Positions 1-58,519 of a stretch of DNA of 64,000 nucleotides are shown in pieces. The stretch comes from Obrimoposthia wandeli (lineage: Eukaryota), in the NCBI GenBank assembly GCA_977020255.1, contig CDROCS010000817.1, positions 434,001-498,000 on the forward strand. The letters run 5' to 3'. Each line of letters begins with the position of its first letter. Position 1 is the stretch's first letter. The notes beneath the pieces were generated by a model. That model searched no databases. It worked only from the letters and a program-made list of their open reading frames with translations, and had not been told where the DNA came from. Both the position numbers and the translations under genes were made by a program.

Positions 1-1260
1 AATCAAGCAAAGGTATTAAAGATAGAAGATGAAGAACGTCAAGTTAAGACATTAGGAATTCAGTGGGATTCTCAAGAAGATTATTTCACTTTTAAAACCA
101 AAGTGAATTATGGGATCAATATTAGTAAGTAAGAATTCATAAGTATCTTGTCAACAGTATTTGACCCTTCGGGGTTCGTGAGTCCATTTATTGTGAAAGC
201 GAAGATATTAATGCAAAGAGTATGGTTAAATAGATTAGGTTGAAATGAAAAAATAGAAGGAGATTTAAAGAAAGATATAATGATGTGGCTTTCACAGTGC
301 AAAGAACTATGGGATAAATGGGATAAATAAATGGGACAAATTCCGTGATGGGTCGAAATAAAACCGGATAAAGAGAGAAAGAGAGAGATTCAAGTCTTCG
401 TAGATGCTTCATCAGAAGCTTTTTGATCCGTTGTATATCTAAGGATAAGGAAAAAAGGGAAAGTAAAAGTTATGTTAATAACAGCGAAATCGAAAGTAGC
501 ACCGTTGAAAACAGTGAATATTCTGAGATTGGAATTGATGACCGCATGTGAATGGATTAAACTGGCAAAGGTTATAGCGAGATCGTGGAATGAGAAGATG
601 ATTAGAAGATGATATTCTGGACAGATAGTGAAGATGTGTGAAACAACGGATATAAATCAATAGAGCCATGTACCGACAAAAGAAAACCCATCAGATATTT
701 TATCGCGAGGAGTAAGTGTGAATGAATGTGTTTCTATCAGGAAGTGGTGGAAAGGACCAGAATATTTAAAGAAAACAAAAGAAATGTGGCTGAGAAATAG
801 TAAATTCGAGAAATTTGAGGATACGGAGAAGAAAGTATGTACCTTATTGACATACAAGATGAAATCTGTACATGAAGAAATACTAGAAGTTAAATATATT
901 CTAGTTTGACAAGAATAAAAAGAATAAGAGCTTGGATAGATCGATTTATAGATAATTGTAGAAAGAAAAAAGAAGTGCGGATAAAAGGAAAATTAAAACA
1001 TAAAGAAATGAAAGTATGAGTAAGCTGATCAAAGAAGATCAAAGGAAATATTTTCAGATAGAAAGGAAAAGTTTAATGAAGACTGAGGAAGTCTTGAAAA
1101 ATAACAAAATTTTAAAGTTAAGCCCATATATAGATGAAGGAGGGATTTTAAGAACAAACTCCAGATTAATTCATGCTGAATTCCTAAACTATGAAAACAA
1201 TTTCTCAGTGATATTGTCAGATGAAGGATGGCTAGCAAGGTTAGTAGTGAGTATGTCCAC
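1..1260 (+). pseudogene. BEL/Pao LTR retrotransposon pol relic (RT end, RNase H, pre-integrase region)
   Basis: Frameshifted translation gives KTLGIQWD, LSTVFDPSGFVSPFIVKAKILMQ, FVDASSEA, AKSKVAPLKTVNILRLEL, PTKENPSDILSRG, WWKGPEYL and KLSPYIDEGGILRTNSRL, all characteristic BEL/Pao pol motifs; internal stops; runs off window start. Confidence 0.88.
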
Positions 1261-1269
1261 AAAATATTC

Positions 1270-1545
1270 CCATGATATAACAATAATCATTAGGCAAGGT
1301 TACTTTTTCATGATTGTAGGTATTTATAAATTTGTGTCATATTCTGAGAAGACAGTCTAATTTTCCAATTATATATATTGGTTGTTCAATTGCTGATGTG
1401 ACTTGAGTATTTTCCTTAAAGAGAAGTATTTTTATGTAATTTTAAAAAAGGATTCGTCTAGAATTGTTACGCTTGACCCAGTGTCAATTAAAGGTTTAAG
1501 TTTGTACTCATTAATTTCTACTTTTACATATGTTCATCTATCATT
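1270..1545 (-). pseudogene. Degraded retroviral-type aspartic protease (retropepsin)
   Basis: Minus strand reads YVKVEINEYKLKPLIDTGSSVTILDESFF (DTG at 1477-1485), then after a frameshift TQVTSAIEQPIYIIGKLDCLLRI and a distal YCYIMG segment; stops present. Confidence 0.72.
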
Positions 1546-1699
1546 ATTTTTATCATTTATTGTACATATCTTGGTGCACTTGAGTTTGGAATTATTGTTT
1601 TATTTTTGTATGTTTCTAAATCAGGATATTATGAAGATTCTGTTTTTTTTAAATTTTGACGTCTGTTATTCTTTTAAATTTGTTTCTCACATTTCGTTT

Positions 1700-2745
1700 G
1701 ATAATAGATTTATTGTATTTTGATGATGATTAAAAATAAGATATTTTACTAAAAAAAAGAAACATCCTAAGATTAATTTCCATGTTAATCCACCAACTTT
1801 TTAAAATATAATTGTAGATAAAATTTCATTTAACAAAATTTTAAGCATATATCCCGACTAATCCAGAAAATTCTTAATCAAAAATTTTAAAAATTCCCCA
1901 TATATTTGAAATTTTTTTGAGTAGCTGTTATAAAATAATTGAGACAAATAACTCCATCTGGTACGGATATTTTTATGACTTGGGTTAAAATTCTGTATCT
2001 TATTGTGGAAATAAAATTTATTTCTTAATTTGTATATGTCTTCTTGTTTATAAATTCATTTTGTAAAAAACAAAAGCTCATTATCTGGTTGTATGTCAAT
2101 ATTTTTATTGAAACCGGTTAATTATAATTTTAGTGGTTTGGCAACTATGTCTCTTCTTGGAAGCTAGATCCAAAAATATTCTGAGATTTGGTAATGGGAT
2201 GTCATTATGTTTGAACAATTTGTTTATTTTATGTTAAATGAGTTAAAGAGTATAATTCTAATGATTGACTCAACGAATAATGATTCTTGTAAGAAATTGG
2301 TAATTCTTTAATACATTTTTTGTGATGTGTTAAATATCACTTTTTGACATTGAGAAGTGTATTACACTTCTCCCATTACTTTTCCAAAAGTACCATCAGC
2401 TAAGGGTAACATTGGTGTTATTAATTCCGAATAAGTAACGATAATTGTCTATTTTGTTGCTAAAATCTCATGATTTAATTTACAATCATTCATTATTCTT
2501 TTTCGGTATATTCCTTATATGTCCTTTGTGATAAAATAATAATCTATTTTTTTGTCAAATTTAATTGATGTAGATTTTTCATTATGTATTTTTTGTTACT
2601 TAAATATATTCATTTATAAATTGTTGTGTACATAGAGTGTCCACGACGGGATTCCTCTTTCTTTTTTATTAATCTCATTCCTGAACCAGTAGACATTAGT
2701 AGACATTAAAATAGTTGTAGTTAATTTTTTTAATTTTTCCAGTAC
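1700..2745 (-). pseudogene. Degraded C-terminal half of a class III viral fusion glycoprotein, homologous to the glycoprotein of the LTR element at 28.8-39.4 kb
   Basis: Reads KIDYYF..NDCKLNHEI..PMLPLADGTFGKVMGEV (2365-2415)..CSNIMTSHYQISEYFWI (2168-2217), versus KIDFYY..RDCQLNKEI..PLLPLDEGVFAKTMGEV..CSNIMAPEYQMTNNLWI in ORF 30877-33834. Continues into WGIFK..FSGLVGIY and GGLTWKLILGCFFFLVKYLIF, resembling a membrane-proximal/TM region. Confidence 0.8.
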
Positions 2746-2772
2746 AATATCATCACCATTTTCAATCATAAA

Positions 2773-3116
2773 ATGTCTATCATTGATTTATATAGTGGAT
2801 CACAAACTGATGATGACTTGCCTTATTTCAAGGGAAAAAGTATGATTCAGGATGATTGAGAACACTGGACCGTATAACTTTCCCAATTCTAAAAAGATTG
2901 GGACGTATAGGTGTAAATACAGCTTCTGATATTATAATGAATAAGAAATCTATAATACCTGCATTGAAACAACATGGTATTAATGAAGGTCCCGGGCTTC
3001 TACCTGCAACAACAAAATCACTCAATGGGTTAGTAACTGTAATTATAAAGAAACGTAGATCTAAGAGACCATCACGGGAGGCAAGTAAGCAAAAATGCAG
3101 TGGTAGTATAAAGTAA
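2773..3116 (+). pseudogene. Polinton/Maverick small basic core-like (pVII-type) gene, frameshifted
   Basis: MSIIDLYSGSQTDDDLPYFKGK / LRTLDRITFPILKRLGRIGVNTASDII..KKRRSKR resembles the basic gene found just upstream of Polinton major capsid genes; position next to the MCP agrees. Confidence 0.55.
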
Positions 3117-3148
3117 AGACGGAAAAGAGGTACAATATTTGAGTAAAA

Positions 3149-4163
3149 ATGACAACTGCATACAGTAAATCCAAATTATGTTTGTTTGATAGACCAGCAA
3201 CTCAAATTGTAATTGAGATAGATATTTTGAAGATATTTATCCCATAAATACAATTAACGAAAAAAATCTATCTGCAATTGAATTTAAAATTCCAGGTTAT
3301 CAGATCTTGATTTGAATGATACATTTTTACATGTAAAAATTTAAGTCGTTAAAAAGAATGATGCACCATTAAATGAAGCTGATAATATTACACCAACTAA
3401 TTTCATGTTTCAGACACTGTTTAGAAACTTGGGAGTTTCATTGAATTCTGAGAAAATAGAAGGTGGTAATGATATGTATACTGTAAAATCAATGATAAAA
3501 ACCATTCTTAATTATGGGACCGATACTAAAGAGACATTCCTTTCATGCATTTGATATGACTCGGATGCAGATGAACATAAAAAGTAGATTTCTCGTTCTA
3601 CTAAGTTTGAAATGTGTGGTTCAATTTGTGCAGATTTCGTTGACCAAACCTAAATATATTTTGTCTGATATTGATGTGAGATTGAAATTTGTAATTAATA
3701 ATCTTCAAGTAAGCCTTACATCTGAAAATATAGAAGCTAGGATTCAATTTATAGATGCAAAATTAAAGGTTAGACGTATACGTGTTGAACAATCTGTGCT
3801 TATGGCACATAATATTGGTTTAGAAACTCAAAATGTGATTTATTCATATAAAGTAGACAAAGCACATACATATGTTAAAGGCTCAATGGCTTTTTATAAA
3901 GACAATATATTTGGTGATGAAGTACTACCTAAATTTGTACTTTTTGATTTTCAAACTAGCTCAAAATTATATGGTACTCAAAAATCTGATTCTTCAATAT
4001 TCAATCATTTTGATATTAATACAATGACATACTCTAGAAATACGGATTTCTATGAAACATATAAAGTAGATTTCGAAAATAATTGTTTTACTTTGGCTTA
4101 TGTATAATCCATCATTAGAAACATGGGATATTTATATAAGTACATAAACAATGGTATAACACC
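3149..4163 (+). pseudogene. Polinton/Maverick major capsid protein, 5' part (interrupted by solo LTR)
   Basis: MTTAYSKSKLCLFDRPATQIVIE..DLNDTFLHVK..TPTNFMFQTLFRNLGVSLN..ILNYGTDTKE..SDIDVRLKF..AKLKVRRIRVEQSVLMAHNIGL..DNIFGDEVLPKF..FNHFDIN matches the MCP pattern; several frameshifts and stops. Confidence 0.85.
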
Positions 4164-4601
4164 TGTTAGGATTGGGTTTTGTTAAAATTAAATAATTAAG
4201 TCGAATTTATACTAAAATAAAAATCCTTGAAAACAAGGTTAAAATTAAATAAAATTGAAAATTAGAAGTAAAATATTAAAGTAAAAGGAAAATTGAATAT
4301 TAGAGGACCACGAAGGTCGTGTGTGATGTGTAGGTATATATTGAAGTTTATATCTAACAAAAGGGCCCAAAAAAGATATAGCTCTGAAGATAAGTCATTA
4401 CAAGAAAGAAGATTAATTAGAAAAAGGAAATTTAAAAGAAGAAGTACAAACCGAAATCCAGTCGACGTCAGCAGTCACGTCCCGACAGCTGTTCCTGAAG
4501 TGAGAAAATTAATTAATTTAGTTGAAATAAATACTTTCCGCAGCGAACCAGAAGATTGATTGACAGACCACGTCACCGGGGAAATCAACAGAGCAGTAGA
4601 C

Positions 4602-4609
4602 TATATAAG
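4602..4609 (+). promoter_or_regulatory. Candidate LTR TATA box (TATATAAG)
   Basis: Same octamer lies about 400-450 bp from the LTR start in four LTR variants (4602, 30255/39033 minus, 39915, 57827); position conserved, activity not shown. Confidence 0.55.
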
Positions 4610-4974
4610 TCTACGGAAATCAGCCTATCAAGAGAGCCCAACTCAAGCGATCTACAAGAGAATTCTCGGCAGAAACAATCTTATTCCTGATCTACGGAAA
4701 CGAGCCCAACTCAAGCGATCTACAAGAGAATTCTCGGCAGAAACAATATCATTCCTGATCGAAACCGAACGCCAAGCAGAGGTAAGAAAACAGTTAGAAA
4801 AGAACATCGTTAACACAAACATACAGAAAAGAAACGAGACACGCCAACTGTCAAGGGCGTAAACCACGAATCGGCGGACAGGAAGTCACTGTTCCGAAGA
4901 GACAAGGAGCGCCGGAACTAGGATCCGATCGAGACGGAAATTATCTACAGATTTGGAAGGTGAGCCAGAAGAAT

Positions 4975-6305
4975 TGTAATCGTAAGAAAATTTGACATAA
5001 AGTAATCTTTGTAATCGTAAAAGAATTTGAAATAAAGGAATTTTGTAATCGTAAGAAAATCTGAAATATAGTAAGCTGTGTCGTGAAGACAAATTGAAAT
5101 TTTGTAATCATAAGAGAATTGAAATAAAGTAATCTTTGTAATTGTAAAAGAATTTGAAATAAAGGAATTTTGTAATCGTAAGAAAATCTGAAATATAGTA
5201 AGCTGTGTCGTGAAGACAAATTGAAATTTTGTAATCATAAGAGAATTGAAATAAAGTAATCTTTTTAATCATAAGAGAATTTGAAATAAAGGAATTTTGT
5301 AATTGTAAGAAAATTTGAAATATAGTAATTTGTTGTCGTGAAGACAAATTGAAGTTTTGTAATAGTAATTTGTTGTCGTGAAGACAAATTTAAGTTTTGT
5401 AATAGTAATTGTTGTCGTGAAGACAAATTTAAGTTTGTAATAGTAATTTGTTGTCGTGAAGACAAATTGAAGTTTTGTAATAGTAATTGTTGTCGTGAAG
5501 ACAAATTGAAGTTTTGTAATAGTAATTTGTTGACGTGAAGACAAATTGAAGTTTTGTAATAGTAATTTGTTGTCGTGAAGACAAATTTAAGTTTTGTAAT
5601 AGTAATTGTTGTCGTGAAGACAAATTTAAGTTTGTAATAGTAATTTGTTGTCGTGAAGACAAATTGAAGTTTTGTAATAGTAATTGTTGTCGTGAAGACA
5701 AATTGAAGTTTTGTAATAGTAATTGTTGTCGTGAAGACAAATTGAAGTTTTGTAATAGTAATTGTTGTCGTGAACACAAATTGAAATTTTGTAATAGTAA
5801 TTGTTGTCGTGAAGACAAATTGAAGTTTTGTAATAGTAATTTGTTGTCGTGAAGACAAATTGAAGTTTTGTAATAGTAATTTGTTGTCGTGAAGACAAAT
5901 TTAAGTTTTGTAATAGTAATTGTTGTCGTGAAGACAAATTTAAGTTTGTAATAGTAATTTGTTGTCGTGAAGACAAATTGAAGTTTTGTAATAGTAATTG
6001 TTGTCGTGAAGACAAATTTAAGTTTGTAATAGTAATTTGTTGTCGTGAAGACAAATTGAAGTTTTGTAATAGTAATTGTTGTCGTGAAGACAAATTAAAG
6101 TTTTGTAATAGTAATTGTTGTCGTGAAGACAAATTGAAGTTTTGTAATAGTAATTGTTGTGAAGACAAATTGAAATTTTGTAATAGTAATTGTTGTCGTG
6201 AAGACAAATTGAAGTTTTATAATAGTAATTTGTTGTTGCGAAGACAAATTGGAATTTTGTAATCGTAAGAAAATTTGAAATAAGGTAATCTGTTGTCGTG
6301 AAGAC
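4975..6305. repeat. Minisatellite array inside LTR-C (39-40-bp unit, about 24 copies, plus longer degenerate units)
   Basis: Repeated TGTTGTCGTGAAGACAAATTGAAGTTTTGTAATAGTAATT; accounts for the repetitive ORFs in the track. Confidence 0.95.
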
Positions 6306-6756
6306 ATTTTGGAAACAAACCCTTCAGACTTTTTAGGCTACTTAAATTTTAGAGCAACGGCTCTCTAAAATCAATCCCTATTTTTAGAGTAAAGACTCTA
6401 GTGACTAAAACAAACATAACCGTAAAATCGATACGTGGTTCATCCCCACTTGTGCAGAGACTTACGAAAGTCTTAGGAATTTTACTACAACTTTTTAGAA
6501 AATACGTACGTAAACGTATTGTTCATTTGCCTAGTGTGTTAACAATAAACGATTTCCTACATTAGAAAACGTTGTTTTAAACCCTTCAGTTTAAGAGACG
6601 TCAAACAAACACCTTCAGATAAGCAATTGAGATAGGCAACCATAACACTAAGTAGGCCACGACCAACTTTAAGACCTGCTTCTATTCGAACTCACGTTGG
6701 GGCCCTCCGCACACAAGAGGATCTATACAAGTCTCGTATAGAAACCCCAACACACC

Positions 6757-6950
6757 TAATGATTTCAAAACCAAATATACATTTTTTTCACTTTCGTAAT
6801 GGCCCCTAATTTCAATGTATATCAACAACAATTACCTAGAATGGGTAATTTGAAATTTGATGTAAAGTTTGCTAAAGGTTTGCCTCAACCCGGGGGGCTT
6901 TGACGCTTTTATTTAGTACCGACACTATATACTACTATAATTTATTAACT
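6757..6950 (+). pseudogene. Polinton major capsid protein, 3' part
   Basis: NDFKTKYTFF..MGNLKFDVKFAKGLPQP resembles the MCP C-terminal GNLRLE-KFAKALP motif. Confidence 0.75.
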
Positions 6951-7221
6951 TCCTAAAGTTACTTTGGATTCAAGATATATTTCTTCGAGAAGTCGTTCAG
7001 ATAAATCATTTCTCGATGGAATATGTGAGTAGGTAGAAGGATGGAGTCTAAGCCACTTGACCCCCCCTCCCGCCTCCCCCTAAAGGGTGTCACACCATAA
7101 GGGTGTCTTGCCACACCATAAGGGTATATGTTGCCTCACCTCCGGTGAGGCAACATATACTCTTATGGTGTGACACCCTTTAGGGGGAGGCGGGAGGGGA
7201 GGGGAGGGGAAGTGGTACTTA

Positions 7222-7630
7222 AAGGGTCAAGTGGCTTAGTCTCCACCCTTCTTTTTGAGATATACCACTATGAAAGGGTCAAGTGGCTTAGTCTCCACCC
7301 TTCTTTTTGTGATATACCACTATGAAAGGGTCAAGTGGCTTAGTCTCCACCCTTCTTTTTGTGATATACCACTATGAAAGGGTCAAGTGGCTTAGTCTCC
7401 ACCCTTCTTTTTGTGATATACCACTATGAAAGGATCAAGTGGCTTAGTCTCCACCCTTCTTTTTGTGATCTAGTCTCCACCCTTCTTTTTGTGATATACC
7501 ACTATGAAAGGATCAAGTGGCTTAGTCTCCACCCTTCTTTTTGTGGTCTAGTCTCCACCCTTCTTTTTGGCTAACTACTAATTCAAAGGATCAAGTGGCT
7601 TAGTCTCCACCCTTCTTTTTTGTGACTAGT
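7222..7630. repeat. Subterminal 53-bp tandem repeat (mirrored at ~14420-14730)
   Basis: GAAAGGGTCAAGTGGCTTAGTCTCCACCCTTCTTTTTGTGATATACCACTAT recurs at 53-bp spacing, with truncated variants. Confidence 0.9.
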
Positions 7631-8159
7631 CCATAATGAAAATTTAGGATAAAGTTCACTCTTATCAGTTAAGAAATGTGGTTTTTAACACACACATACA
7701 CTATTTTATGTGAAATTTAAACTAAAGTTCACTCTTATCAGTTAATGAATGTATTACGTAATCACACACATACTATTTTATGTGAAATTTAGATCAAAGT
7801 TTTTCCTAGGCTTACACATTTATAGAATTATGATAAAATTTCTTTAAATAACTTCAATTATATATTAAAATAAAAAATAAAATAAGAAAGAAGTCAGAGA
7901 ATAATACAAAATTAAACACATTTATTATGTAATTTCATAATATCATCTTCAAACTTAAGTGAATAACATTTACAAAGTAAGAAAGTCCATTCTTTATACA
8001 TTCTTTTCGTTTCAACGACTAAGTTACAACGAAATTAATAGAAAATTAGTAAAAATATTAATTTATTTGAATATTTGAATGAGAGTTTGAATAAATGAGA
8101 GGTAGAATGAATGTAAATGAATAAAATTATGCATGCAAGTATGAATGTCATTTACAAGT

Positions 8160-10030
8160 AAGAGTCTTAGCAAGTGAATGTAATTTTAAAATAAGAGTGT
8201 CGATAGTTTGATTGAATGCAAGTGTAATTTAGACTATAAGTAAATTAAAATAGAGTTTTCGTTGAATAAATTATAGTTAGATTCAATGCAAGTATGAATG
8301 CAAGTGAATGATAGTATGAATTTCAATACAAGTAAGTGTCTTAGCAAGTGAATGTAATTTTAAAAATAAGAGTGTCGATAGTTTGATTGAATGCAAGTGT
8401 AATTTAGACTATAAGTAAATTAAAATAGAGTTTACGTTGAATAAATTATAGTTAGACTGAATGCAAGTATGAATGCAAGTGAATGATAGTTTGAATTTCA
8501 ATACAAGTAAGTGTCTTAGCAAGTGAATGTAATTTTAAAAATAAGAGTGTCGATAGTTTGATTGAATGCAAGTGTAATTTAGACTATAAGTAAATTAAAA
8601 TAGAGTTTTCGTTGAATAAATTATAGTTAGATTGAATGCAAGTATGAATGCAAGTGATTGATAGTATGAATGTCAATACAAGTAAGTGTCTTAGCAAGTG
8701 AATGTAATTTAAAAATAAGAGTGTCGATAGTTAGATTGAATGCAAGTGTAATTTAGACTATAAGTAAATTAAAATAGAATTTTCGTTGAATAAATTATAG
8801 TTAGATTGAATGCGAGTATGAATGCAAGTGATTGTTAGTATGAATGTCAATACAAGTAAGTGTCTTAGCAAGAGAATGTAGTTTTAAAAATAAGAGTGTC
8901 GATAGTTTGATTGAATGCAAGTGTAATTTAGACTATAAGTAAATTAAAATAGAGTTTTCGTTGAATAAATTATAGTTAGATTGAATGCAAGTATGAATGC
9001 AAGTGAATGATAGTATGAATTTCAATACAAGTAAGTGTCTTAGCAAGTGAATGTAATTTTAAAAATAAGAGTGTCGATAGTTTGATTGAATGCAAGTGTA
9101 ATTTAGACTATAAGTAAATTAAAATAGAGTTTTCGTTGAATAAATTATAGTTAGATTGAATGCAAGTATGAATGCAAGTGAATGATAGTTTGAATTTTCA
9201 ATACAATTAAGTGTCTTAGCAAGTGAATGTAATTTAAAAATAAGAGTGTCGATAGTTAGATTGAATGCAAGTGTAATTTAGACTATAAGTAAATTAAAAT
9301 AGAATTTTCGTTGAATAAATTATAGTTAGATTGAATGCAAGTATGAATGCAAGTGAATGATAGTATGAATTTCAATACAAGTATGTGTCTTAGCAAGTGA
9401 ATGTAGTTTTAAAAATAAGAGTGTCGATAGTTTGATTGAATGCAAGTGTAATTTAGACTATAAGTAAATTAAAATAGAGTTTTCGTTGAATAAATTATAG
9501 TTAGATTGAATGCAAGTATGAATGCAAGTGATTGATAGTATGAATGTCAATACAAGTAAGTGTCTTAGCAAGAGAATGTAATTTAAAAATAAGAGTGTCG
9601 ATAGTTAGATTGAATGCAAGTGTAATTTAGACTATAAGTAAATTAAAATAGAATTTTCGTTGAATAAATTATAGTTAGATTGAATGCGAGTATGAATGCA
9701 TGTGATTGATAGTATGAATTTCAATACAAGTAAGTGTCTTAGCAAGTGAATGTAATTTAAAAATAAGAGTGTCGATAGTTTGATTGAATGCAAGTGTAAT
9801 TTAGACTATAAGTAAATTAAAATAGAGTTTTCGTTGAATAAATTATAGTTAGATTGAATGCAAGTATGAATGCAAGTGAATGATAGTATGAATTTCAATA
9901 CAAGTAAGTGTCTTAGCAAGTGAATGTAGTTTTAAAAATAAGAGTGTCGATAGTTTGATTGAATGCAAGTGTAATTTAGACTATAAGTAAATTAAAATAG
10001 AGTTTTCGTTGAATAAATTATAGTTAGATT
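8160..10030. repeat. 175-bp satellite-like tandem array, about 11 units (left arm)
   Basis: TAAATTAAAATAGAG recurs at 8241, 8416, 8591, 8765, 8940 and onward at 174-175-bp spacing. Confidence 0.93.
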
Positions 10031-11229
10031 GAATGTAAATGAATACAAGTATACATTCAAGTGAATGCAAATACGAGTAAGAGTTTCAGCAAGTAAATAT
10101 AAAACTATGAATGAGTGACAGTGAAAATAAGAGTGTCGATAGTTTGATTGAATGAGAGTGTAATTTAGACTAGAAATAAATTAAAATAGAGATTTAGTAT
10201 GAATAAAGTTATGTTAAGTTACAGTTAGATTAATAACAAGTAAGCAACTATAAGTAAGCAGTGATATTGAAGTATGTTAAAAATTAGAACGACTAAGTTA
10301 TGGCAAGATTAATAGAAAACAACACCAAATTTGATAGTATGAATGAAAATTAGTAAAATATTAATGTATTTGAATGTATTTGAAAGATAGTTTGAATAAA
10401 TTACAGTTAGATTGAATGCAAATGAATGCAAGTATGATTGAATGCAGGGTCAAGTACAAGTAAGAAAGAATACGCAATATGCAAGTACGAATGCCAATTA
10501 TGAATGAAAATTAGTAAATATAATAATGAATTTGAATAATTAAAATGTCTTATCTCGTTTGATAAAATTCCTTAATTGAAATATTTTAAAATAATTAGTT
10601 TAATTTAAATTCTTTATTTTTAAATAACTTGATTATACAATTATATTCGTAAATATAATTAAAATTATCATTATTCGTTTCTCTTTTTTAACTATTCGAA
10701 ACTGTTTTTATATATATACAAATTTAGTAAATTAACTCAACAACAATTTTTTTTTATTAATTACTTGATATTTTTGCCATTGTCTTATTAATATAATATG
10801 AATATTCAATTTATTTCTTCAAAAATTCATTTTATATGTTAAATAATATTCTTTATCACATTATTGTGATTTTTATCAAGTGATTTTAACCTTAAACTAT
10901 AAAAATATTTTAATTATAAAGTTAGTAGCTGTACCCCGCCCCCTGCATATAACATAAATTTCAAATATAAAGTACTATTAAGTTTATTATTTCGACATTG
11001 TGGTAAGTAATTTTGGTATTAATTGTTTTTAAACTAGATTAACTTCGTATAACCTCATTTTTTTTATCTTAAACTAAAATATATTTTAATATCCTTTTAT
11101 TATATTAATTTATTTTGCTCAAGTATTTTTAAACATTTCAATGTTATATAATAGTTTAATAAAAGTTAATCATTGAATACAAGAACACAAATTCTAATAA
11201 CTTAAAACGTATTAAAGTGAATAAATGCA

Positions 11230-12230
11230 TAAATATATTATGTTTACAAGTAAATTTATAGTAAACGACAGTAAACTATGAATTACTTTTTATGTAATGA
11301 AATATTACAGTATTAACTTACAATATATTAAATTGAAAATATGCAAATTATATTATGTTTACAAGTCAATTTATTGATCAAATCATTAAAATTATGATTA
11401 ATAAGTAAATTTCTTGAAGTTTTGGTTGTAAATTATATTAAAGTAAAAACTTACAACATTTTAAACTGAATATATACAACAACAAATAAATATTGTAGTT
11501 TACAAGTAAATTACTTGAAGTTTTTGTTGTAAAATTATATTAAAGTAATAACTTACAACATATAAATTGAAAATATACCAAAATAAATTATGTTTACAAG
11601 TCTATTTATTGTACAAAACATTAAACTTATGTTTAATAAGTAAACTACTTGAAGTTTTTTGTTGAAAATTATAATAAAGTAATAACTTACAACATATTAA
11701 AGTGAATATATGCATAAATATATTATGTTTACAAGTCAATTTATTGTAAACGATAGTAAACTATCAATTACTTTTTTATATAATGTAATATTATAGTAAT
11801 AACTTACAATATATTAAATTGAAAATATGCAAATTATATTATGTTTACAAGTCAATTTATTGATCAAATCATTAATATTATGATTAATAAGTAAACTACT
11901 TAAAGTTTTTGTTGAAAATTATATTAAAGTAATAACTTACAACATTTTAAACTGAATATATACAACAACAAATAAATATTGTAGTTTACAAGTAAATTAC
12001 TTGAAGTTTTTGTTGTAAATTATATTAAAGTAATAACTTACAACATATTAAATTGAAAATATATCAAAATAAATTATGTTTACAAGTCAATTTATTGTAC
12101 AAAACATTAAACTTATGTTTAATAAGTAAACTACTTGAAGTTTTTGTTGAAAATTATATTAAAGTAATAACTTACAACATTTTAAACTAAATATATACAA
12201 CAACAAATAAATATTGTAGTTTACAAGTAA
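11230..12230. repeat. Degenerate ~120-bp tandem repeat in the central spacer, with ~486-bp higher-order repeat
   Basis: TATTATGTTTACAAGTCAATTTATTG-like and AACTTACAACAT motifs recur; a longer block repeats at ~11349 and ~11835. Confidence 0.75.
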
Positions 12231-13249
12231 ATTTTCGAATGTCTAGTAAACAAAATTAAATAACTCGAAAAAACATTTACTATTCGAAATAATAAACTTA
12301 ATAGTACTTTATATTTGAAATTTATGTTATATGCAGTGGGCGGGGTACAGCTACTAACTTTATAATTAAAATATTTTTATAGTTTAAGGTTAAAATCACT
12401 TGATAAAAACCACAATAATGTGATAAAGAATATTATTTAACATATAAAATGAATTTTTGAAGAAATAAATTGAATATTCATATTATATTAATAAGACAAT
12501 GGCAAAAATATCAAGTAATTAAAAAAAATTGTTGTTGAGTTAATTTACTAAATTTGTATATATATATAAAAACAGTTTCGAATAGTTAAAAAGAGAAACG
12601 AATAATGATAATTTTAATTATATTTACGAATATAATTGTATAATCAAGTTATTTAAAAATAAAGAATTTAAATTAAACTAATTATTTTAAAATATTTCAA
12701 TTAAGGAATTTTATCAAACGAGATAAGACATTTTAATTATTCAAATTCATTATTATATTTACTAATTTTCATTCATAATTGGCATTCGTACTTGCATATT
12801 GCGTATTCTTTCTTACTTGTACTTGACCCTGCATTCAATCATACTTGCATTCATTTGCATTCAATCTAACTGTAATTTATTCAAACTATCTTTCAAATAC
12901 ATTCAAATATATTAATATTTTACTAATTTTCATTCATACTATCAAATTTGGTGTTGTTTTCTATTAATCTTGCCATAACTTAGTCGTTCTAATTTTTTAA
13001 CATACTTCAATATCACTGCTTCCTATAGTTGCTTACTTGTTATTAATCTAACTGTAACTTAACATAACTTTATTCATACTAAAACTCTATTTTAATTTAT
13101 TTCTAGTCTAAATTACACTCTCATTCAATCAAACTATCGACACTCTTATTTTCACTGTCACTCATTCATAGTTTTATATTTACTTGCTGAAACTCTTACT
13201 CGTATTTGCATTCACTTGAATGTATACTTGTATTCATTTACATTCAATC

Positions 13250-13900
13250 TAACTATAATTTATTCAACGAAAACTCTATTTTAATTTACTTATAGTCTAA
13301 ATTACACTTGCATTCAATCAAACTCTCGACACTCTTATTTTTTAAATTACATTCACTTGCTAAGACACTTACTTGTATTGAAATTCATACTAGCATTCAC
13401 TTGCATTCATACTTGCATTCAATCTAACTATAATTTATTCAACGAAAACTCTATTTTAATTTACTTATAGTCTAAATTACACTTGCATTCAATCAAACTA
13501 TCGACACTCTTATTTTTAAATTACATTCACTTGCTAAGACACTTACTTGTATTGAAATTCATACTATCAATCACTTGCATTCATACTCGCATTCAATCTA
13601 ACTATAATTTATTCAACGAAAACTCTATTTTAATTTACTTATAGTCTAAATTACACTTGCATTCAATCAAACTCTCGACACTCTTATTTTTAAAATTACA
13701 TTCACTTGCTAAGACACTTACTTGTATTGAAATTCATACTATCATTCACTTGCATTCATACTTGCATTCAATCTAACTATAATTTATTCAACGAAAACTC
13801 TATTTTAATTTACTTATAGTCTAAATTACACTTGCATTCAATCAAACTATCGACACTCTTATTTTAAAATTACATTCACTTGCTAAGACTCTTACTTGTA
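13250..13900. repeat. Inverted copy of the 175-bp array, about 4 units (right arm)
   Basis: Reverse complement of the 8160-10030 unit. Confidence 0.9.
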
Positions 13901-15292
13901 AATGACATTCATACTTGCATGCATAATTTTATTCATTTACATTCATTCTACCTCTCATTTATTCAAACTCTCATTCAAATATTCAAATAAATTAATATTT
14001 TTAATAATTTTCTATTAATTCCGTTGTAACTTAGTCGTTGAAACGAAAAGAATGTATAAAGAATGGACTTTCTTACTTTGTAAATGTTATTCACTTAAGT
14101 TTGAAGATGATATTATGAAATTACATAATAAATGTGTTTAATTTTGTATTATTCTCTGACTTCTTTCTTATTTTATTTTTTATTTTAATATATAATTGAA
14201 GTTATTTAAAGAAATTTTATCATAATTCTATAAATGTGTAAGCCTAGGAAAAACTTTGATCTAAATTTCACATAAAATAGTATGTGTGTGATTACGTAAT
14301 ACATTCATTAACTGATAAGAGTGAACTTTAGTTTAAATTTCACATAAATAGTGTATGTGTGTGTTAAAAACCACATTTCTTAACTGATAAGAGTGAACTT
14401 TATCCTAAATTTTCATTATGGACTATATCACAAAAAAGAAGGGTGGAGACTAAGCCACTTGATCCTTTGAATTAGTAGTTAGCCAAAAAGAAAGGTGGAG
14501 ACTAGACCACAAAAAGAAGGGTGGAGACTAGATCACAAAAAGAAGGGTGGAGACTAGATCACAAAAAGAAGGGTGGAGACTAGATCACAAAAAGAAGGGT
14601 GGAGACTAAGCCACTTGATCCTTTCATAGTGGTATATCACAAAAAGAAGGGTGGAGACTAAGCCACTTGACCCTTTCATAGTGGTATATCTCAAAAAGAA
14701 GGGTGGAGACTAAGCCACTTGACCCTTTAATCTATGGACGACCACAGTGGTATATCAAAGAAGGATGGAGTCTAAGCCACTTGACCCCCCCTATCCTTCC
14801 CCTCCCCTCCCCTCCCGCCTCCCCCTAAAGGGTGTGACACCCTTTAGGGGGGGGTCAAGTGGCTTAGACTCCATCCTTCTACCTACTTATGTGCTACGAA
14901 TGATAGTCTATCAATTTCAAATATGGCCTTAAAATCCTCCGACAATGTAGTATCAATAGGATAATTTTGCATAGACCCAACGAGCTATTCTTTTTTAATA
15001 TCTGTAATATCTTGATTTGATATTGAATCAAACCATGTTGACGTTGATACCATGAACTTCTCTGGTGTTGCAAGAGAAGTAGAACTATTGCTTCAGGCTC
15101 TTTTTCTGAATTCATTTGAAATTTCTTTAAATTTTCAGCCAGTCGAGTTGAACTTGCTGCTGTTAGTTCCTTTATGCAAGATTTTAAACAAATATTATAT
15201 TCTTTCAATTAAAAAAATCGTTTTTTCGTTTTTTATTGTTGTTTTTTTCATCACTAATCCACCATGAAGTAATTTTATTTATAATAATTTAC

Positions 15293-15630
15293 ATGTATAA
15301 TTAGTACAAGACAGATTTCAAAAATTGGTACGGACCTGCTCGACTCAAAATTCAAAGATGTATACACTCTGGATAAACTTCCTACATTGTTAGAGAGAGG
15401 ATATGTTGTAAATACTCATATATCAAATCTACCAGGAGAACATCGGATTGTGCTATTTTTTACCAAGCATAGAATTCATGTGTTTGATCCATTGGGGGTA
15501 TACTATCCGTCAAAATGAGTTAAACATGTAGAAAATCATTCCAACAAATATATATTTTACAAGAATCAAGCACAACATCTATTAACTAATAATTGTGGAC
15601 CTTTATTTGTATTGTGGTTATACTTACAAT
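15293..15630 (+). pseudogene. Polinton/Maverick adenain-like cysteine protease
   Basis: DVYTLDKLP..YVVNTHISNLPGEHRIVLF..HVFDPLG..NQAQHLLTNNCG retains the His, Asp, Gln and Cys catalytic positions; one internal stop and a 5' frameshift. Confidence 0.85.
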
Positions 15631-16191
15631 AATAATAAATGTTTTAATAAAATTTGATTATGTTTTTATATTCTAAAGTTATTCATTGAGTTTACTATTC
15701 TCCCTTTAAAAATAATTATTCTAAAAATTTGAAAATTATAATTTTAAATTAAAAAGTTTTATTTTCTATTAAATACTTTTTAAAACCATAAAATTAATTT
15801 TTATAATGGATTTTTATATTTAATACAAATTAAATTACAAAGTTTCAAAAATTCTAATTTTTAAACTTTGCCAGCGTAATAAGTTGGTACAAAAACACGC
15901 TCCTATATATATAAACCTTCTCCAGTCTGAAGTTTGTTTATATTTTGAGCTATATATTATCAAATTTATTGAAGCTACCGAATATATCATTCAAGATACA
16001 AAAAGTTATTATCAATCAAAAGTTATTGAAGCTATCAAAAGTTATTTATGATACAGAAATTTATTGACAATCAAAAGTTATCGAAGTTCCCTGAAGTTAT
16101 TCAAACTACAGAATGTGACCATTTTTATTAGTATATCTTTGTGTCTTTATTTTTTGGGTCTATAAATTTTAAAATAAAATTTATCTGATAT

Positions 16192-17049: not shown

Positions 17050-17500
17050 AGAAAGTAGTGTTCAATCAGATCTTATTTTCGATGTTAGCACATCTAATTT
17101 ATATAAAGTTGAAGTAATTGAGTCTATGAAAACTGATTTACTCAATAAAATAGAATCATTTAGTAGTTGTAAGATTCAATTTGTTGTTAGTGTTCAGTTT
17201 GTTGATGTTAACGAAACTGAAAAGATTTTGTGTATAAGTTGTAAGGGTCGACAGTGTGATGATGAATTTATTAAATTTACTTGTGATAAAATAAATAGTT
17301 ATATTCAAAATTATTCAGAGCAAAGTAGTGCTTGGGTTGTACAGAACATTTTGCAAATTAGTTCTAAATTTACAGCTTTCTCATCTATAACTGGTTCATG
17401 TTAATTTTAACACCAAATACCTTGGAATTAAATGGCGCAACAGTTAATATTCAAAACAATGATAATAAATGTTTTTATATGTCAATCATGAATCTGAACA
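17050..17500 (+). pseudogene. N-terminal fragment of a Polinton-type protein-primed DNA polymerase B
   Basis: KIQFVVSVQF..YSEQSSAWVVQNILQI..SITGSC..ATVNIQNNDNKCF matches the GSGW..GSSYIxLP..INIQNxDxxCF region typical of pPolB N-termini; truncated by LTR-like sequence. Confidence 0.72.
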
Positions 17501-26499: not shown

Positions 26500-28789
26500 C
26501 TGAGTTCGAATTGCTGACAGCCCCACGATCAGAATCAAACTTTTGTTACAACAAATTCACTTCCTGAAAAAAGACGATCCATCCGCTGAGACATCTATGG
26601 AAAGGCACAGTGGCGACCTGGATCCCTAACCTTCAGTTAACTCAACCAATACGACAAAAGTGTCGTAGTACCCTCTTCACTTTCTTTCGGTTAATAAAGA
26701 AGCAACACGTCCCACTCCATTCGTTCCCTAAACAGTGTTAACTATCTTTTCCAAAGGCCATGCTCCACGTTCATTCTTTTTATCCAAAACCACGTCTCCT
26801 CTTTCCAACAGACTTTTCTCTTCAAATCTCCTCCATCTCGCGCGCAACCTTCCTGATAAATCTCTATAAAATTCAGTGGCTCAAATTAAAAAATGATTTT
26901 GTGTCAAAGCTTCACACTCCTTCTTTTCCATTTACTTTCTACCAATGGGCCATGAATTCACCAACTGCTCAACCTCTTTTAAATTGTCACCAACTCCTCG
27001 TAGGTCACATCTGATTCCAAAGCCCGAGCAATTATCTTTGCTAACTTTACTCCTACACTAGCCACCATTAACTGTAATCTCGGTATACTTATAACTTTTA
27101 ATGCTGAACCTTCGAATTGGCAGCAACAAATTCTAAACGACTTATAACATTTGTCTGTCTTAAATAAGTTACCGAACCATATGCATCTTTATACGCGTCG
27201 GAAAACACATGTATTTCCTCGCCTAGGCCCATTTTTCTAATTAAAGAATGTGGTATATTAACTGTTTCTAACTTTGCACAGCCTTCGATCCACTTTCTCG
27301 CATTCCTATCAATACTTTCTAAAACTTCTTTGTCCCATCCTACTCCCGAAGTCCAAAGCTCTTGCATTATTATCTTGGCTCGCATCAACAAAACACATTG
27401 GATCAAAAACATGAAATAACAAACTTACGAAATTTATTTTCGTTATCTTTTCAACCTTTGTTAACTCAATATTAAACTTAAATACATCTTCGTTACACGG
27501 CCAATTCATGCTGCCAAGTTCTTGTGATCTTCAATCTTTATCTTTGTGCTCTGTCCTCTTCAGATATTTCCGCCAACACGGATTTGCTAGTCGTTGCCCA
27601 TTTTCAGGTTACCCTTCTTGCTCTTTCCATAATTCTTTTAATTCTATCGTCAGGCCCAGTCCAGACTATCATCCATATAGGAAAACTTTAGCACTGTATC
27701 CGCAGTCCTCTGAAAAACTTCCTGATTAATTTCTGCATGATACCAACTGAGCCAAGAACGGTGATGTGTGAAATCCAAAAACTAAACGACAATACTCACA
27801 AGTACTAACATCTTCCATATCGTTACCCCATAAAAATCGGTGTCACAAACGATCTACTGATTTCAATGACACCTGTAAATACATTTCCGATATTTCACAA
27901 ACCATGCCATTTCAAACTTACGAAAACGCAAATATATAACAAATAAATCTTCTTGAAGTTTTTGTCCATCTTATATCTTGTCATTTAAAAAACTCCTTGG
28001 CACTTTTCGGTAGCGTCAAATACTATCCGAACTTTCATTGTTTCTTTATCTCTTCTTACTACTGGAAAATGCGGAATCAGCCACTTTGTATATTTTCTTT
28101 TTTCTACATTGATTTTTCATACATAACCTTTTTTGATTTGATCTTCTATTGTTGAGATGTATTCCCTTTTCAATTGTAGATTTATATTAAGTCTACGTTC
28201 AATTCCATATAACCGAGTTCTAGTCATTTCTTCATTAGTCAGGATGTTTTTCGAATCCTGCTTCCATGGTATTCTTACCATATATCTTCCATTTTTCAAC
28301 TAATTGTCTTATCCATGACATTCTTGTCATTAATCTACTGTTGTTCAAATAGGGAAATAAGTTCTTCTATTTACCAAAACTTTCTCACTTACTCTTCCAA
28401 TCGAGTGTCAGCATGAAATGTCTTTATAAAATTAGTAATGAAAATCTAATTGAATTTAAATTAGTCCGCTTTGGTTCCACCATCTTCCACTTAATCACTT
28501 GGAAATTCCCAGACACTTCCTTTACAGCCAACGCGTTAATCTTGTCTTTAACTTTATATCTATGTTCAAGATCGTTATATCTATAGGCATTGCGTTCATT
28601 CCCTCAGTCCATCCACCAATAACACTGACTGGAACCCAAGTAGATTTCCATTCAACTGCCATTCGCGCGCAATATCAAGACTTACATAACTTGTGGTGCT
28701 TGCGTCATCTAGTAGAGCATTTACCTGATGAGCTCTTTCTCTACTTTCTAATATAATTGGCACCGTCCACAACGTCATCACTTCTTGTC
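26500..28789 (-). pseudogene. BEL/Pao pol relic (protease, RT, RNase H); host of LTR element A
   Basis: ALLDDASTTSYVS protease; GRYMVRIPWKQD; IPHFPV..KVRIVFDA; FDPMCFV..RAKIIMQELWTSGVGWD; IHVFSDAYKDAYGSVTYLR; many stops. Confidence 0.88.
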
Positions 28790-28793: not shown

Positions 28794-30657
28794 TGTTGGG
28801 GTTTCTATACGAAACTTGGTACAGATCCTCTTATGTGCGGAGGGCCCCAACGTGAGTTCGATTAGAAGCAGGTCTTAAAGTTGGTCGTGGCCTACTTAGT
28901 GTTATGGTTGCCTAATCTCTTGTACTATCTGAAGGTATTTGATTTGATGTCTCTTATTCTGAAGGGTGCAAAACAACTTGTTCTAATGTAGGAAATTGTT
29001 TATTTGTAATTCACGTAACTAACACAACAATACGTTTATGTACGTATTTCTAAAAAGTATGATAAAATTCCTAGGACTTCTGTAAGTCTCTACAAGAAGT
29101 GGGGATGAACCACGTATCGATTTTACGTTCAGGTGATTAAGCTTTTAGGTTTATTCTTCTTACTTAGGTTGGTTAATCTATAACGCAACTCTCTTAAATT
29201 TCTTCGCTCCTACTTCTTATATCTAGATAAAGTTTCTTGATTCCTTAACTCTATCTGCTGTGTGTTTGACCCCGAATTGTCCACTGTGAACAATGGGTCT
29301 CCTAAAAACCTAATTGTCAAAGATGACAATGAAAACTTACTCCGAATTGTCAACTACGGACAATGAATGAACCGAATTGTCAGCTAGGGACAATGAGTCT
29401 TACCGAATTGTCAACTAGGGACAATGAGTATTTGTCCGAATTGTCAACTAGGGACAATGAATGAACCGAATTGTCAGCTAGGGACAATGAGTCTTACGGA
29501 AAAAAGTCTGGTATAATTCCTAATTGTCGCTGGGGACAATGAATAAAATAGATGATCTTAATTGCCAACTAGGGACAATGATTAGGTTAATGAGTCAGCA
29601 ATCCTAATTGCCAGCTAGGGGCAATGAATGTGTTTACTAGGTTAAAATTTAGAATTACCAACAAGGGGTAATGAAGGTATCCTAATTGCCAACTAGGGGC
29701 AATGAATGCTCTAGTCGGTTGGCTTACCAATACGCTGCGACTAGTGCGGCTTCCGGTGCAGGATCCGTATGGAGCGCTTGCGAGTCTGGCGGAACCGTCC
29801 TCAAAGTCAACTGTAGCTTTCGACTTCTTCCGCGCTTTTCACTTCTTTCGAACCTTTCAATCTGGATACCGACTCGACTTTCAACACTGATTCGATATTC
29901 AAATATTGGTTCAACTTCAATTTCGGATTCGATATTTCAATATTGGTTCAACTTCAATTACGGATTCGATATTACAATTTGGTTCAACTTCAATTACGGA
30001 TTCGATATTACAATTTGGTTCAACTTCAATTACGGATTCGATATTACAATTTGGTTCAACTTCAATTACGGATTCGATATTACAATTTGGTTCAACTTTT
30101 CACACTGATCTAAATAATTTTAACTCTACCTATTCCCAATCACCACTTACCGATTCGTGGTCGAGGGGATTGTCTTCTGTCTAATTGCTTCTTCTTTTTT
30201 CCAGTCGACTCTGTAGTTGATTCCGTATTTGTGTTTTCTGTTTTGGCGATCTGCCTTATATAGAGGCAAGTCTGTCAATCAAATCGACAGCTGCTTAATG
30301 GTCGCGGGAATTCACTTGAATTCTTCTGGAATATATCTGAAATTTATTAACCTTATTGCACTTAAAATGTGCTTACCTTTTCCTGATTGACGTCTCTTAA
30401 TTGACGTTTCTAATTGATCCTTTTTTCTGTAATTAATTCTAAATTGTTCGCTTTTTGGGTTAATTAATTCAACTTATATACATCTCACATTATACACGAC
30501 CTTCGTGGTCCTCCTAATTTTTACCCTAACTTCCACTAATTTCAATTCTAAAACTAAAATTAATATTTAATTTAATTTTCAACCTTGCTTTCAAGGATTT
30601 TTATTTTAGTATTTAATCGACTAAAATATTTAAATTTCTTAATTCTCAAACCTAACA
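28794..30657 (-). repeat. 3' LTR of element A (1864 bp)
   Basis: Direct repeat of 37571-39435; by eye only two substitutions and one 1-bp indel; contains a degenerate ~30-bp array (29270-29700) and a 36-bp array (~29905-30100). Confidence 0.96.
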
Positions 30658-30876
30658 TACCTCGGGGGTTCCAAAAAAGTTACGTCCCCGGAACGTATCG
30701 ATTTTACTTATACAAGCCTCTGGCTGTTGATTTTAGGTTCATCCCTACAAAATCAATCATTCAACTTCAACAAACATGCCCAAAACAAAATTTCTCAAAA
30801 TCCCGGTTTTTAGTGGGAAACATAATGTATAATTTGGAGCAAGTCTCAAACCATACATTATTACTTATACACAAAA

Positions 30877-33834: not shown

Positions 33835-33849
33835 TAATCCTCGGGGTAC

Positions 33850-35919: not shown

Positions 35920-36454
35920 ATCTTCAACTATATCGTCTTCAACTATTCCTTCAATATTATTTACTTGAACTTCTTCAATCACTACTGGATTGGCAATTTC
36001 AATTTCTTCTGGGTTTTGAACTTCAAGATTATCAATTTCTTCTGGGTTTATGTCACCAAATAACTCAGTCAGCTCAAAACTGTCGGTTGAAACTGCTGAT
36101 TGATCAACGTCTCTTTCTGATACGTTTTCTTCGACTCTAGTCTTTTCTGTTACTTTGTTATCTGTTTGGGGAACCTGTTCAATTCGGTCAACTTTATTAT
36201 TATTTGTCTCTTCCTTGGGAATCTGGCTTTGTCTTCTAGTATTAAACGTGGGTCCTTTTCTATTATCCGTTGTCTTATCAATTATGTATTCGTTTACGAT
36301 ATCAATTTACTTATTATTTTTTATCTTATTTCACAATTCTTATTTTACGATTTTTTATCTCTTTAATTAGTTCGAGGACAGAGTCTCCCGACTTAACTTA
36401 TTCAATTAATTACTTCGAGTATCAATCCACTCGATTCTCACTTATCAAATTTAC

Positions 36455-37200
36455 TGACTCGAGGAACAAATCCACTCGACTTCTCAAAAACTTATCGAAT
36501 TCTTACTTCGAGGAACAAATCTACCCGATTTCTCAAAAACTTATCAAATTCTTAACTTCGAGGAACAAATCTACCCGATTTCTCAAAAACTTATCAAATT
36601 CTTAACTTCGAGGAACAAATCTACCCGATTTCTCAAAAACTTATTAAATTCTTAACTTCGAGGAACAAATCTACCCGATTTCTCAAAAACTTATCAAATT
36701 CTTAACTTCGAGGAACAAATCTACCCGATTTCTCAACACTTATCAAATTCTTAACTTCGAGGAACAAATCTACTCGATTTCTCAAAACCTATCAAATTCT
36801 TAACTTCGAGGAACAAATCTACTCGATTTCTCAAAACTTATCAAATTCTTAACTTCGAGGAACAAATCTACCCGATTTCTCAAAAACTTATCAAATTCTT
36901 AACTTCGAGGAACAAATCTACTCGATTTCTCAAAACTTATCAAATTCTTAACTTCGAGGAACAAATCTACCCGATTTCTCAAAAACTTATCAAATTCTTA
37001 ACTTCGAGGAACAAATCTACTCGATTTCTCAAAACTTATCAAATTCTTAACTTCGAGGAACAAATCTACCCGATTTCTCAAAAACTTATCAAATTCTTAA
37101 CTTCGAGGAACAAATCTACTCGATTTCTCAAAACTTATCAAATTCTTAACTTCGAGGAACAAATCTACTCGATTTCTCAACACTTATCAAATTCTTATCT
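36455..37200. repeat. 49-50-bp tandem array (about 15 units) in the 5' leader of element A
   Basis: AACTTCGAGGAACAAATCTACCCGATTTCTCAAAAACTTATCAAATTCTT at 36554, 36604, 36654 and onward. Confidence 0.95.
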
Positions 37201-37515
37201 CAATTTACTTATATCTTCTTCTGAAACTTATTCTAAATTTGCTTATATCTTCTTCTGAAACTTATTCTCAATTGTCTATATTCTTCTGCTGAAACTTATT
37301 CTCAATTTATCTGAAACTTATTCTCAATTTATCTGAAACTTATTCTTAATATCTGAAACTTATTCTTAATATCTGAAACTTATTCTTAATATCTGAAACT
37401 TATTCTTAATATCTGTACTTATTTTATTTACCTGAAACTTATTCTCAATTATCTGAAACTTATCCGAACTTATTCTATTTACCTGAAACTTATTCTCAAT
37501 TATCTGAAACTTATC
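37200..37515. repeat. ~20-bp tandem array in the leader next to the PBS
   Basis: CTGAAACTTATTCTCAATTTAT-like units; equivalent array at ~59875-60110 in copy B. Confidence 0.9.
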
Positions 37516-37543
37516 TACGTGAATTCGCTGTGTCCGATGAGCT

Positions 37544-37562
37544 ATCCTCACTCGGGGCACCA
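37544..37562 (-). other. Primer-binding site complementary to the 3' end of elongator tRNA-Met
   Basis: TGGTGCCCCGAGTGAGGAT, 8 nt after the LTR end; the eukaryotic elongator tRNA-Met 3' end (..ATCCTCACACGGGGCACCA) matches at all but one position. Confidence 0.85.
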
Positions 37563-37570
37563 CTTTAATA

Positions 37571-49100: not shown

Positions 49101-49341
49101 ACAAAAGGTAAATTTAATTCCTCTTTAAAATTGAAAAATACCCCGATGAACATAATACAAAATAACTTGATTTGTTTATATCTTTAATAATGTTTTGAGA
49201 GCTAGTATTTTAGAATTGATTAAAGCAGAAGAATTCTAGAATAAGGAACAAAGATCGGTCAGTGGCTATAGTTGTCAGAAACAGTATAATGATCTTAACA
49301 AAGGCCAATTCAAACCTCCTATAAGTGTGGTCAGTACTCAC

Positions 49342-58450: not shown

Positions 58451-58519
58451 CCAAATAAACAGACGCTGCAACTTTGGAATTGAGATAGGTGAGAGGAGAG
58501 TAATAGGCTAGGGTTTTAA

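Follow-up and report, generated by a model that had tools for sequence, protein, structure and literature searches.

A 7,860-bp palindromic element occupies positions 7028-14887 of contig CDROCS010000817.1 from Obrimoposthia wandeli, as numbered within the 64,000-nucleotide stretch that was analyzed (the window). Two arms, which together make up 84% of the element, enclose a center. The left arm (7028-10995, plus strand) is a terminal inverted repeat of 3,968 bp that begins AGTAGG and has TCGA at its inner end, and the right arm (12284-14887, minus strand) is 2,604 bp long and carries the same modules, as seen from an alignment of the arms. The center (10996-12283) is a nonpalindromic stretch of 1,288 bp with a guanine-cytosine (GC) content of 17%; it is mostly a composite 486/235/135-bp tandem repeat (11195-12233) and has no real likeness to the arms. 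GC skew is mirror-symmetric around the center of the element. An initial annotation, made from the sequence alone, had called the element almost fully palindromic; its palindromy is borne out but its extent was overstated, with the center lying outside the arms.

The termini read AGTAGG..CCTACT, and the terminal inverted repeat is perfect over 40 bp. The hexamer TATGTG stands on both sides, at 7022-7027 on the left, as found by comparing the flanks, and at 14888-14893 on the right (both on the plus strand), exactly where contigs of the same family depart from the element. When the boundary was shifted through seven offsets (-3 to +3), solely 7028/14887 yielded both an inverted repeat and a flanking duplication. 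Among lengths of 2 to 14 tried at that boundary, the duplication has a length of 6 only, and two random 6-mers from the window would be equal by chance with a probability of 5.9e-4. The terminal 33-mer occurs twice in the window, versus 0 occurrences expected. The 6-bp target-site duplication and AGT..ACT termini first described are thus present at this boundary and at no other offset.

The element was also described as gene-free, and we found it so: the longest stop-to-stop frame inside it is 69 codons, an Rfam search of the element gave 0 matches, and tblastn with 457 open reading frames (ORFs) from 38 Polinton-type loci gave no match inside the element at an E value of 1e-3. It has none of the polymerase B, integrase, capsid, ATPase, or protease genes of an autonomous Polinton and lies below the 12 to 25 kb of such elements. 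Its long modular inverted repeats, internal tandem arrays, and noncoding middle are those by which foldback elements are defined structurally, in agreement with the foldback, nonautonomous build proposed for it. The element is a real, young, high-copy, gene-less, nonautonomous foldback insertion and not an autonomous Polinton.

Reading inward from either end, the arms consist of a 7-nucleotide tail (AGTAGGT), a hairpin, a 52/26-bp array, and a 72/73-bp dimer, followed by unique AT-rich sequence, a 175-bp array, further unique sequence, and, last, a GC-box-like motif. The left hairpin is a nested palindrome of about 218 bp (7035-7252, plus strand) behind its unpaired 7-nucleotide tail and folds at -100.6 kcal/mol (z -18.3); the right hairpin, a shorter form of about 122 bp (14759-14880, minus strand) behind the same tail, folds at -46.6 kcal/mol (z -11.7). 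For each of them, 0 of 200 shuffles were equally stable. The hairpins arise because the terminal ~30 bp repeats the 52-bp array unit just inside in inverted orientation. The left subterminal array (52/26/78 bp; 7221-7631, plus strand) holds nine copies of a 17-bp core, and eight copies are found in the right arm, whose 26/52-bp array lies at 14421-14728 (minus strand); these cores are candidate protein-binding sites. Next come a 73-bp repeat of 2.2 copies on the left (7640-7801, plus strand) and a 72-bp repeat, also of 2.2 copies, on the right (14252-14412, minus strand).

The difference in arm length is mainly due to the 175-bp array, which has 11.8 copies on the left (8138-10216, plus strand; full units differ at 1 to 13 positions) versus 4.0 on the right (13226-13915, minus strand), where units show 0 to 3 differences from the nearest left units (3 positions for the unit we call R2). 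Near the inner end of the left arm, the GC-box-like motif CCCCGCCC followed by an AT-rich run (10934-10953, plus strand) faces the center. The motif is mirrored at 12338-12345, so that each arm has one copy, and the rest of the window has none. We take this combination to be promoter-like; a promoter scan at the inner arm end, which covers bacterial promoters only, found 3 versus 3.1 expected. Both arms end in the self-complementary TCGA, for which the odds by chance are about 1 in 16. That the arms once formed a perfect palindrome, with the center inserted later at its apex, is a lead only, as the center has no transposon ends.

The surroundings of the element are those of a dead Polinton, as the initial annotation had proposed, with broken capsid pieces and a protease flanking it. 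The Polinton is the landing place, and the immediate target is a separate remnant within it. The left part of this remnant (6900-7021, minus strand) belongs to a broken minus-strand frame between capsid and protease, and the right part (14894-15260, right limit approximate, minus strand) is a low-copy repeat with its own depth level; the frame is in register across the duplication. By its motif, the remnant resembles a hAT transposase, an identity that no search confirmed (no Pfam match and 0 of 96 homologue candidates).

Of the Polinton itself, we recognized a broken small gene upstream of the capsid (2743-3065, plus strand; PW by its position in the published gene order), the main part of the broken major capsid gene (3143-4161, plus strand; from look-alike clusters), a late capsid piece after a solo long terminal repeat (LTR) (6763-6900, plus strand; from homologous loci), and a broken adenovirus-type protease gene (15297-15629, plus strand; from the mapping of metagenome loci). 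A further piece (17126-17496, plus strand) corresponds to residues 149-275 of a 1,224-amino-acid (aa) ORF of metagenome locus L008 and, by size and position, is probably polymerase B. We call this Polinton dead because all its genes are broken by stops or frameshifts. In an all-against-representatives search, 164 proteins matched the frame at 3499-4104, a good many of them 400 to 445 aa long, and PF21738 (DJR-like, double-jelly-roll) is found on 15 to 30% of members of the capsid look-alike clusters; 38 metagenome loci with such capsids were mapped onto the window. The protease homologue in L006 matches PF00770 at 3.4e-06, and the window piece itself is below PF00770 detection. Other searches were negative: Pfam named 0 of 11 Polinton or target pieces of the window and, credibly, 0 of 8 capsid homologues, a PDB sequence search returned nothing credible, 0 of 269 candidates among longer proteins were capsid homologues, and 0 of 13 and 0 of 53 candidate stretches in viral_contigs were capsid relatives. 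In relatives such as L006 to L011, at most a few tens of bases separate the capsid from the protease after it; in the window, element aside, the two are about 480 bp apart, and the other sequence that intervenes has a depth level of its own.

We examined four public sequencing runs (X1 to X4), all from one sample of one study, whose contigs contain the stretch. The runs are not independent of the window, as they may be its source. At 85% likeness, 25,920 contigs of X1 were placed on 13950-15750. Among the rows listed, which for this place come from X1 and X3, 99 contigs in X1 have loose ends (median of 255 letters, agreement of 0.39) that start directly behind 14887, as do 33 contigs in X3; because the loose ends start exactly there, the end is precise and many unlike flanks lie beyond it. 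The element is therefore one copy of an abundant dispersed mobile family, an abundance that the initial annotation had not known of. Summed X1 depth was 0.46 to 3.5 million over the arm versus 163 to 6,956 over the flank, one bin excepted, and the longest single X1 pieces had a depth of 40 to 50. Summed depth does not equal copy number; dividing it by 45 and allowing for up to a 31-fold overcount from overlapping contigs (word length of 31 assumed) gives rough bounds of 740 to 37,000 arm ends, i.e., several hundred to more than ten thousand elements. A second set of loose ends, before 14112, occurs in 23 contigs of X2 and 20 of X3 and comes from relatives whose likeness is confined to the outer ~775 bp. 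This subfamily continues with other sequence, a possible helper end or nested insertion, and its loose-end motif is absent from the window. Two sets of observations were left unused: joints in single contigs that keep no more than the last 20 to 23 bp, which could be misplacements among repeats, and a terminus depth in X2 to X4 that is 5 to 15 times below that of the inner arm, unlike X1, for which library bias is likely.

The arms suggest a young insertion. Their alignment, with a few bases of overhang, has 2,562 matches and 35 mismatches plus indels, and the nontandem parts have 1,507 matches and 7 mismatches in 1,514 positions, with 7 small gap events, in line with the recent insertion first suggested. 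The arms had been described as alike except in repeat number; the near-identity stands, but the terminal hairpins differ too. Among the 40 best-supported of 255 rows of differences, four arm sites were listed at which the right arm departs from the family majority. At three of these (14426, 14493, and 14745) the left arm has the majority letter, and at 14307 both arms share a minority letter held by about 20% of family depth. The differences between the arms and between their hairpins fit a real insertion that has mutated slightly since.

We compared the element with known systems; published figures here and below are those in the available portions of the cited sources. Vertebrate Mavericks have 6-bp target-site duplications, (AGT)2, (AG)3, or (AC)3A ends, and repeats of 46 to 1,447 bp (PMC8097293). 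The element shares AG..CT ends, a 6-bp duplication, long inverted repeats, and an animal host with the Polinton/Maverick group (PMC8097293, PMC3014272, and bioRxiv 10.1101/2024.01.15.575659) but differs from it in having no polymerase, integrase, ATPase, capsid, or protease, in its size (7.9 kb versus 12.7 to 24.6 kb), in its arms of 2.6 to 4.0 kb versus 46 to 1,447 bp, in its AGTAGG end, and in its nested terminal hairpins. The notion of Maverick signature ends thus holds for AG..CT and the 6-bp duplication and is inexact for the terminal hexamer. Foldbacks (Drosophila FB, Galileo, Tetris, and Tm1; PMC4079207 and PMC3573991) share modular inverted repeats, variable arrays, a noncoding middle, nonautonomy, and arms of unequal length with the element, whose arms surpass the maximum lengths given for Tetris (1,735 bp) and Galileo (about 1.2 kb). 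It had been claimed that classical foldbacks have other duplication lengths, and this agrees with what is reported: 7 bp for Galileo (P family) and 8 to 10 bp for Tetris (Mutator), versus 6 bp with AG..CT ends here.

IS3EU/GingerRoot elements leave 6-bp duplications, as here, and have TA..TA or TG..CA ends, unlike the AG..CT found; Ginger leaves 4 to 5 bp (PMC10045372). Moving the boundary two bases inward gives TA..TA but no duplication, and it conflicts with the loose ends at 14887. The element is not an LTR retrotransposon or solo LTR, its repeats being inverted and its ends AG..CT. For the assignment of nonautonomous elements, Repbase relies on how long the duplication is and on the first 11 bases (PMC4455052). 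Among the families checked, the AG..CT ends and 6-bp duplication fit Polintons best and, on the published criteria for ends and duplications, a Polinton integrase would be the best candidate mover.

It is also important to consider nonautonomous Polintons described before. Polinton-N1A_NV (PMC11296320) and Tlr1 (PMC5499653) are N or nonautonomous Polinton relatives, and both encode a capsid, whereas the element encodes none. Polinton repeats in Caenorhabditis elegans are 744 bp long, and repeat-only remnants occur (bioRxiv 10.1101/2024.01.15.575659); in Anolis the repeats are 584 bp, with an apparent absence of nonautonomous Polinton copies (PMC3014272). We found no description of gene-less palindromic Polinton derivatives in the available portions of the literature, including those of PMC6431247, PMC5499653, PMC3014272, PMC11296320, PMC8504770, PMC12166591, bioRxiv 10.1101/2024.01.15.575659, and bioRxiv 10.64898/2026.10.13.758929; Repbase, Dfam, subscription journals, and paper supplements were outside this scope, and annotated gene-less Polinton-N families may exist there.

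Dependence on a Polinton is probable, whether by the explanation we favor or by the internal-deletion alternative discussed below, with the helper as a candidate. The explanation we favor, tentatively and at somewhat less than an even chance, is that the element is a satellite of a Polinton/Maverick family whose palindrome was made and is maintained by the helper's fold-back copying. A copy of the element would leave the chromosome as a linear molecule, and the helper's protein-primed polymerase would start at the AGTAGG end, displacing one strand. The displaced strand would then fold over about 2.6 kb and remake a primable duplex end, such that one arm templates the other; this would keep the arms alike and leave the 175-bp and 52/26-bp arrays free to change in copy number by slippage. 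Finally, the helper's retrovirus-like integrase would insert the element with a 6-bp stagger, the subterminal array serving as repeated binding sites. Such an element may have originated when a parent end was copied back on itself or when an inverted repeat grew inward, with loss of the genes. A strand-displacement model of Polintons was reportedly put forward by Kapitonov and Jurka in 2006. To our knowledge, replication and transposition of Mavericks are a model from sequence and have not been shown experimentally.

Several observations are consistent with this explanation. Arms of 2.6 to 4.0 kb exceed the 1,447 bp of vertebrates, the 744 bp of C. elegans, and the 584 bp of Anolis, and Polintons exist in this genome, one dead copy of them in the window. 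A letter common to both arms, as at 14307, is expected if one arm templates the other, at this one site. Adeno-associated virus, a linear DNA virus that depends on a helper, offers a precedent in build: its snap-back defective genomes (PMC8235507) share self-complementarity, an end on both sides, a loop when asymmetric, and helper dependence. The likeness is in build only, as these are transient viral by-products and the element family is fixed, integrating, and high-copy. More broadly, polintoviruses might have recurrent gene-less, palindromic, hairpin-capped snap-back satellites that the helper's protein-primed polymerase copies faster than the helper itself, that its integrase inserts and its capsid perhaps packages, and that outnumber it in the genome as defective interfering parasites, a proposal that is possible but clearly more doubtful than the satellite origin of this one family.

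Depth in the runs bears on candidate helpers. On a conserved protease motif of the dead Polinton (15414-15474), X1 depth peaks at 66,438 versus 1,405 to 5,938 in the adjoining bins, and loose ends before 15411 (14 contigs in X2 and 9 in X4) read, by eye, as in-frame protease codons. The same sample thus seems to contain further Polinton families of greater abundance, which are candidate helpers and whose protease depth is about a tenth of the element's depth at the peak position. Apparently intact Polinton gene blocks (ATPase, integrase, capsids, and protease by motif and order; at most 42 to 45% identity to the window capsid) are seen in metagenome contigs L003, L006, L008, L017, L034, and L035. 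Inspection of the ends of related Polintons in 14 metagenome loci gave no clear terminus and no likeness to the element. The 18-mer core had one match in viral_contigs (L001), which shows no further likeness and was taken as chance.

A number of points weigh against a Polinton-copied satellite. A helper with the same ends was not seen in comparisons limited to the dead Polinton and 39 loci; the 39 loci share no sequence with the element except one AT-rich 26-bp match. The neighboring dead Polinton shares none beyond AT-rich chance matches, and its own ends were not found, with no inverted repeats between the left and right flanks; for these reasons it is the landing place and not a proven parent. 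An ORF scan found no gene remnant linking the element to a parent in either arms or center, and AGTAGG, with five of six letters matching, is one letter off (AGT)2 and identical to none of the three vertebrate motifs. The family evidence covers the outer ~940 bp of one arm, full long arms being known at this copy, and the duplication length is known for one copy, the loose ends of the others being seen as a consensus; all of it comes from a single sample that is perhaps the window's own source. The right arm alone departs from the family at three of the four sites, as in ordinary mutation after insertion and with no sign of ongoing homogenization. Modular arms with tandem repeats are also standard in cut-and-paste foldbacks of several superfamilies (PMC4079207 and PMC3573991), and the palindrome alone needs no polymerase, because array growth and recruitment of internal sequence build such foldbacks.

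Alternatively, the element could depend on a Polinton by ordinary means, as an internal-deletion derivative with unusually long or recombination-grown repeats, for whose movement the helper would supply the integrase and perhaps the polymerase, and whose palindrome has no role. We consider this less likely than fold-back copying. The ends and the duplication speak for it equally. In Galileo, inverted repeats are described as growing inward through tandem expansion and internal recruitment (PMC3573991), tandem array makes up about half of the left arm, and the relatives that break at 14112 share an outer ~775 bp, a normal length for a Maverick repeat. However, without the 175-bp arrays the arms still share about 1.9 kb, more than the 1,447-bp maximum, and the center has no trace of a gene.

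Slightly less likely again, in our view, is a classical cut-and-paste foldback that reached the dead Polinton by chance and is moved by another DDE transposase, from an unusual hAT, Mutator, P, or Kolobok lineage or from an undescribed one, whose duplication happens to be 6 bp long. The long modular repeats, internal arrays, and noncoding middle are what define foldbacks, and cut-and-paste foldbacks typically reach very high copy numbers and carry repeated cores near their ends. A single duplication is known, and duplications of Mutator and hAT relatives span 4 to 10 bp (PMC10045372). Against this, the published foldbacks leave 7 bp or 8 to 10 bp, as noted above, and the ends of IS3EU/GingerRoot do not fit. 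Nor do those of Kolobok or hAT: Kolobok AG..CT ends go with TTAA targets, and hAT ends start with CA or TA.

It is very improbable that two LTR or other repeat units lie head to head, or that a host palindrome arose by break-induced amplification: the window is rich in LTR elements, and some insect gypsy-type LTRs begin with AGT, but the unit as a whole sits within a single 6-bp duplication, the LTR elements of the window have TG..CA ends with 4-bp duplications, and many contigs end exactly at the outer terminus. The least credible alternative is a fold-back artefact of assembly or reads, the case named at the outset as one that would refute the initial reading and for which it can be said that no listed contig spans the examined stretch and no long read was seen across the element; it is largely refuted by arms that differ in substitutions (unit R2 at three positions), array number, and terminal hairpin, by the unique 1,288-bp center and flanking duplication, by flanks that are consecutive Polinton genes, as in relatives, and by a paralogous empty site, represented by two contigs (X1 record 1 and X2 record 9; 19 differences) that align from exactly 14888 and carry 278 nonelement letters upstream.

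Elsewhere in the window, a very young LTR element lies at 28794-39435 (minus strand), with LTRs identical at 1,862 of 1,864 positions and a 4-bp duplication, GTAT. One of its coding frames is gag-like and contains a zinc knuckle; another, 990 aa long, carries a Monjiviricetes-type fusion glycoprotein domain (E value of 2.3e-61). We found no reverse-transcriptase or integrase motif in six-frame translation; it is apparently an envelope-bearing LTR element without pol. A second copy of this family at 57374-64000 (plus strand), cut by the window end, is about 95% identical over 60109-64000, with its long frame interrupted by stops in other places than the first copy. The solo LTR that splits the Polinton capsid gene (4164-6752) is of a related family, with TG..CA ends, a CACC duplication, and 39-bp and 127-bp arrays. 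Bel/Pao retrotransposon remnants were found at 27101-27424 (Peptidase_A17) and, by resemblance only, at 400-1357. Probable host exons lie at 49334-49711, with an immunoglobulin domain, and 51092-51493 (both minus strand).

Taken together, a young, abundant, gene-less family provides hundreds or more natural records of cis requirements and of end maintenance and such records from one genome allow the strand-displacement model to be put to the test. Should another transposase prove to be the mover, the element would be a large foldback of the ordinary kind, with a duplication of unusual length. If the family is moved by Polintons, they would join the superfamilies that give rise to foldback elements. 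Were the snap-back satellite proposal true, the 7.9-kb size would show that the class is not tied to full genome length, and the conserved ends would map a minimal Maverick origin and integrase site. For the genome that carries them, kilobase palindromes in such numbers probably give rise to rearrangements, satellite arrays, and double-stranded RNA, as well as to errors in assembly.

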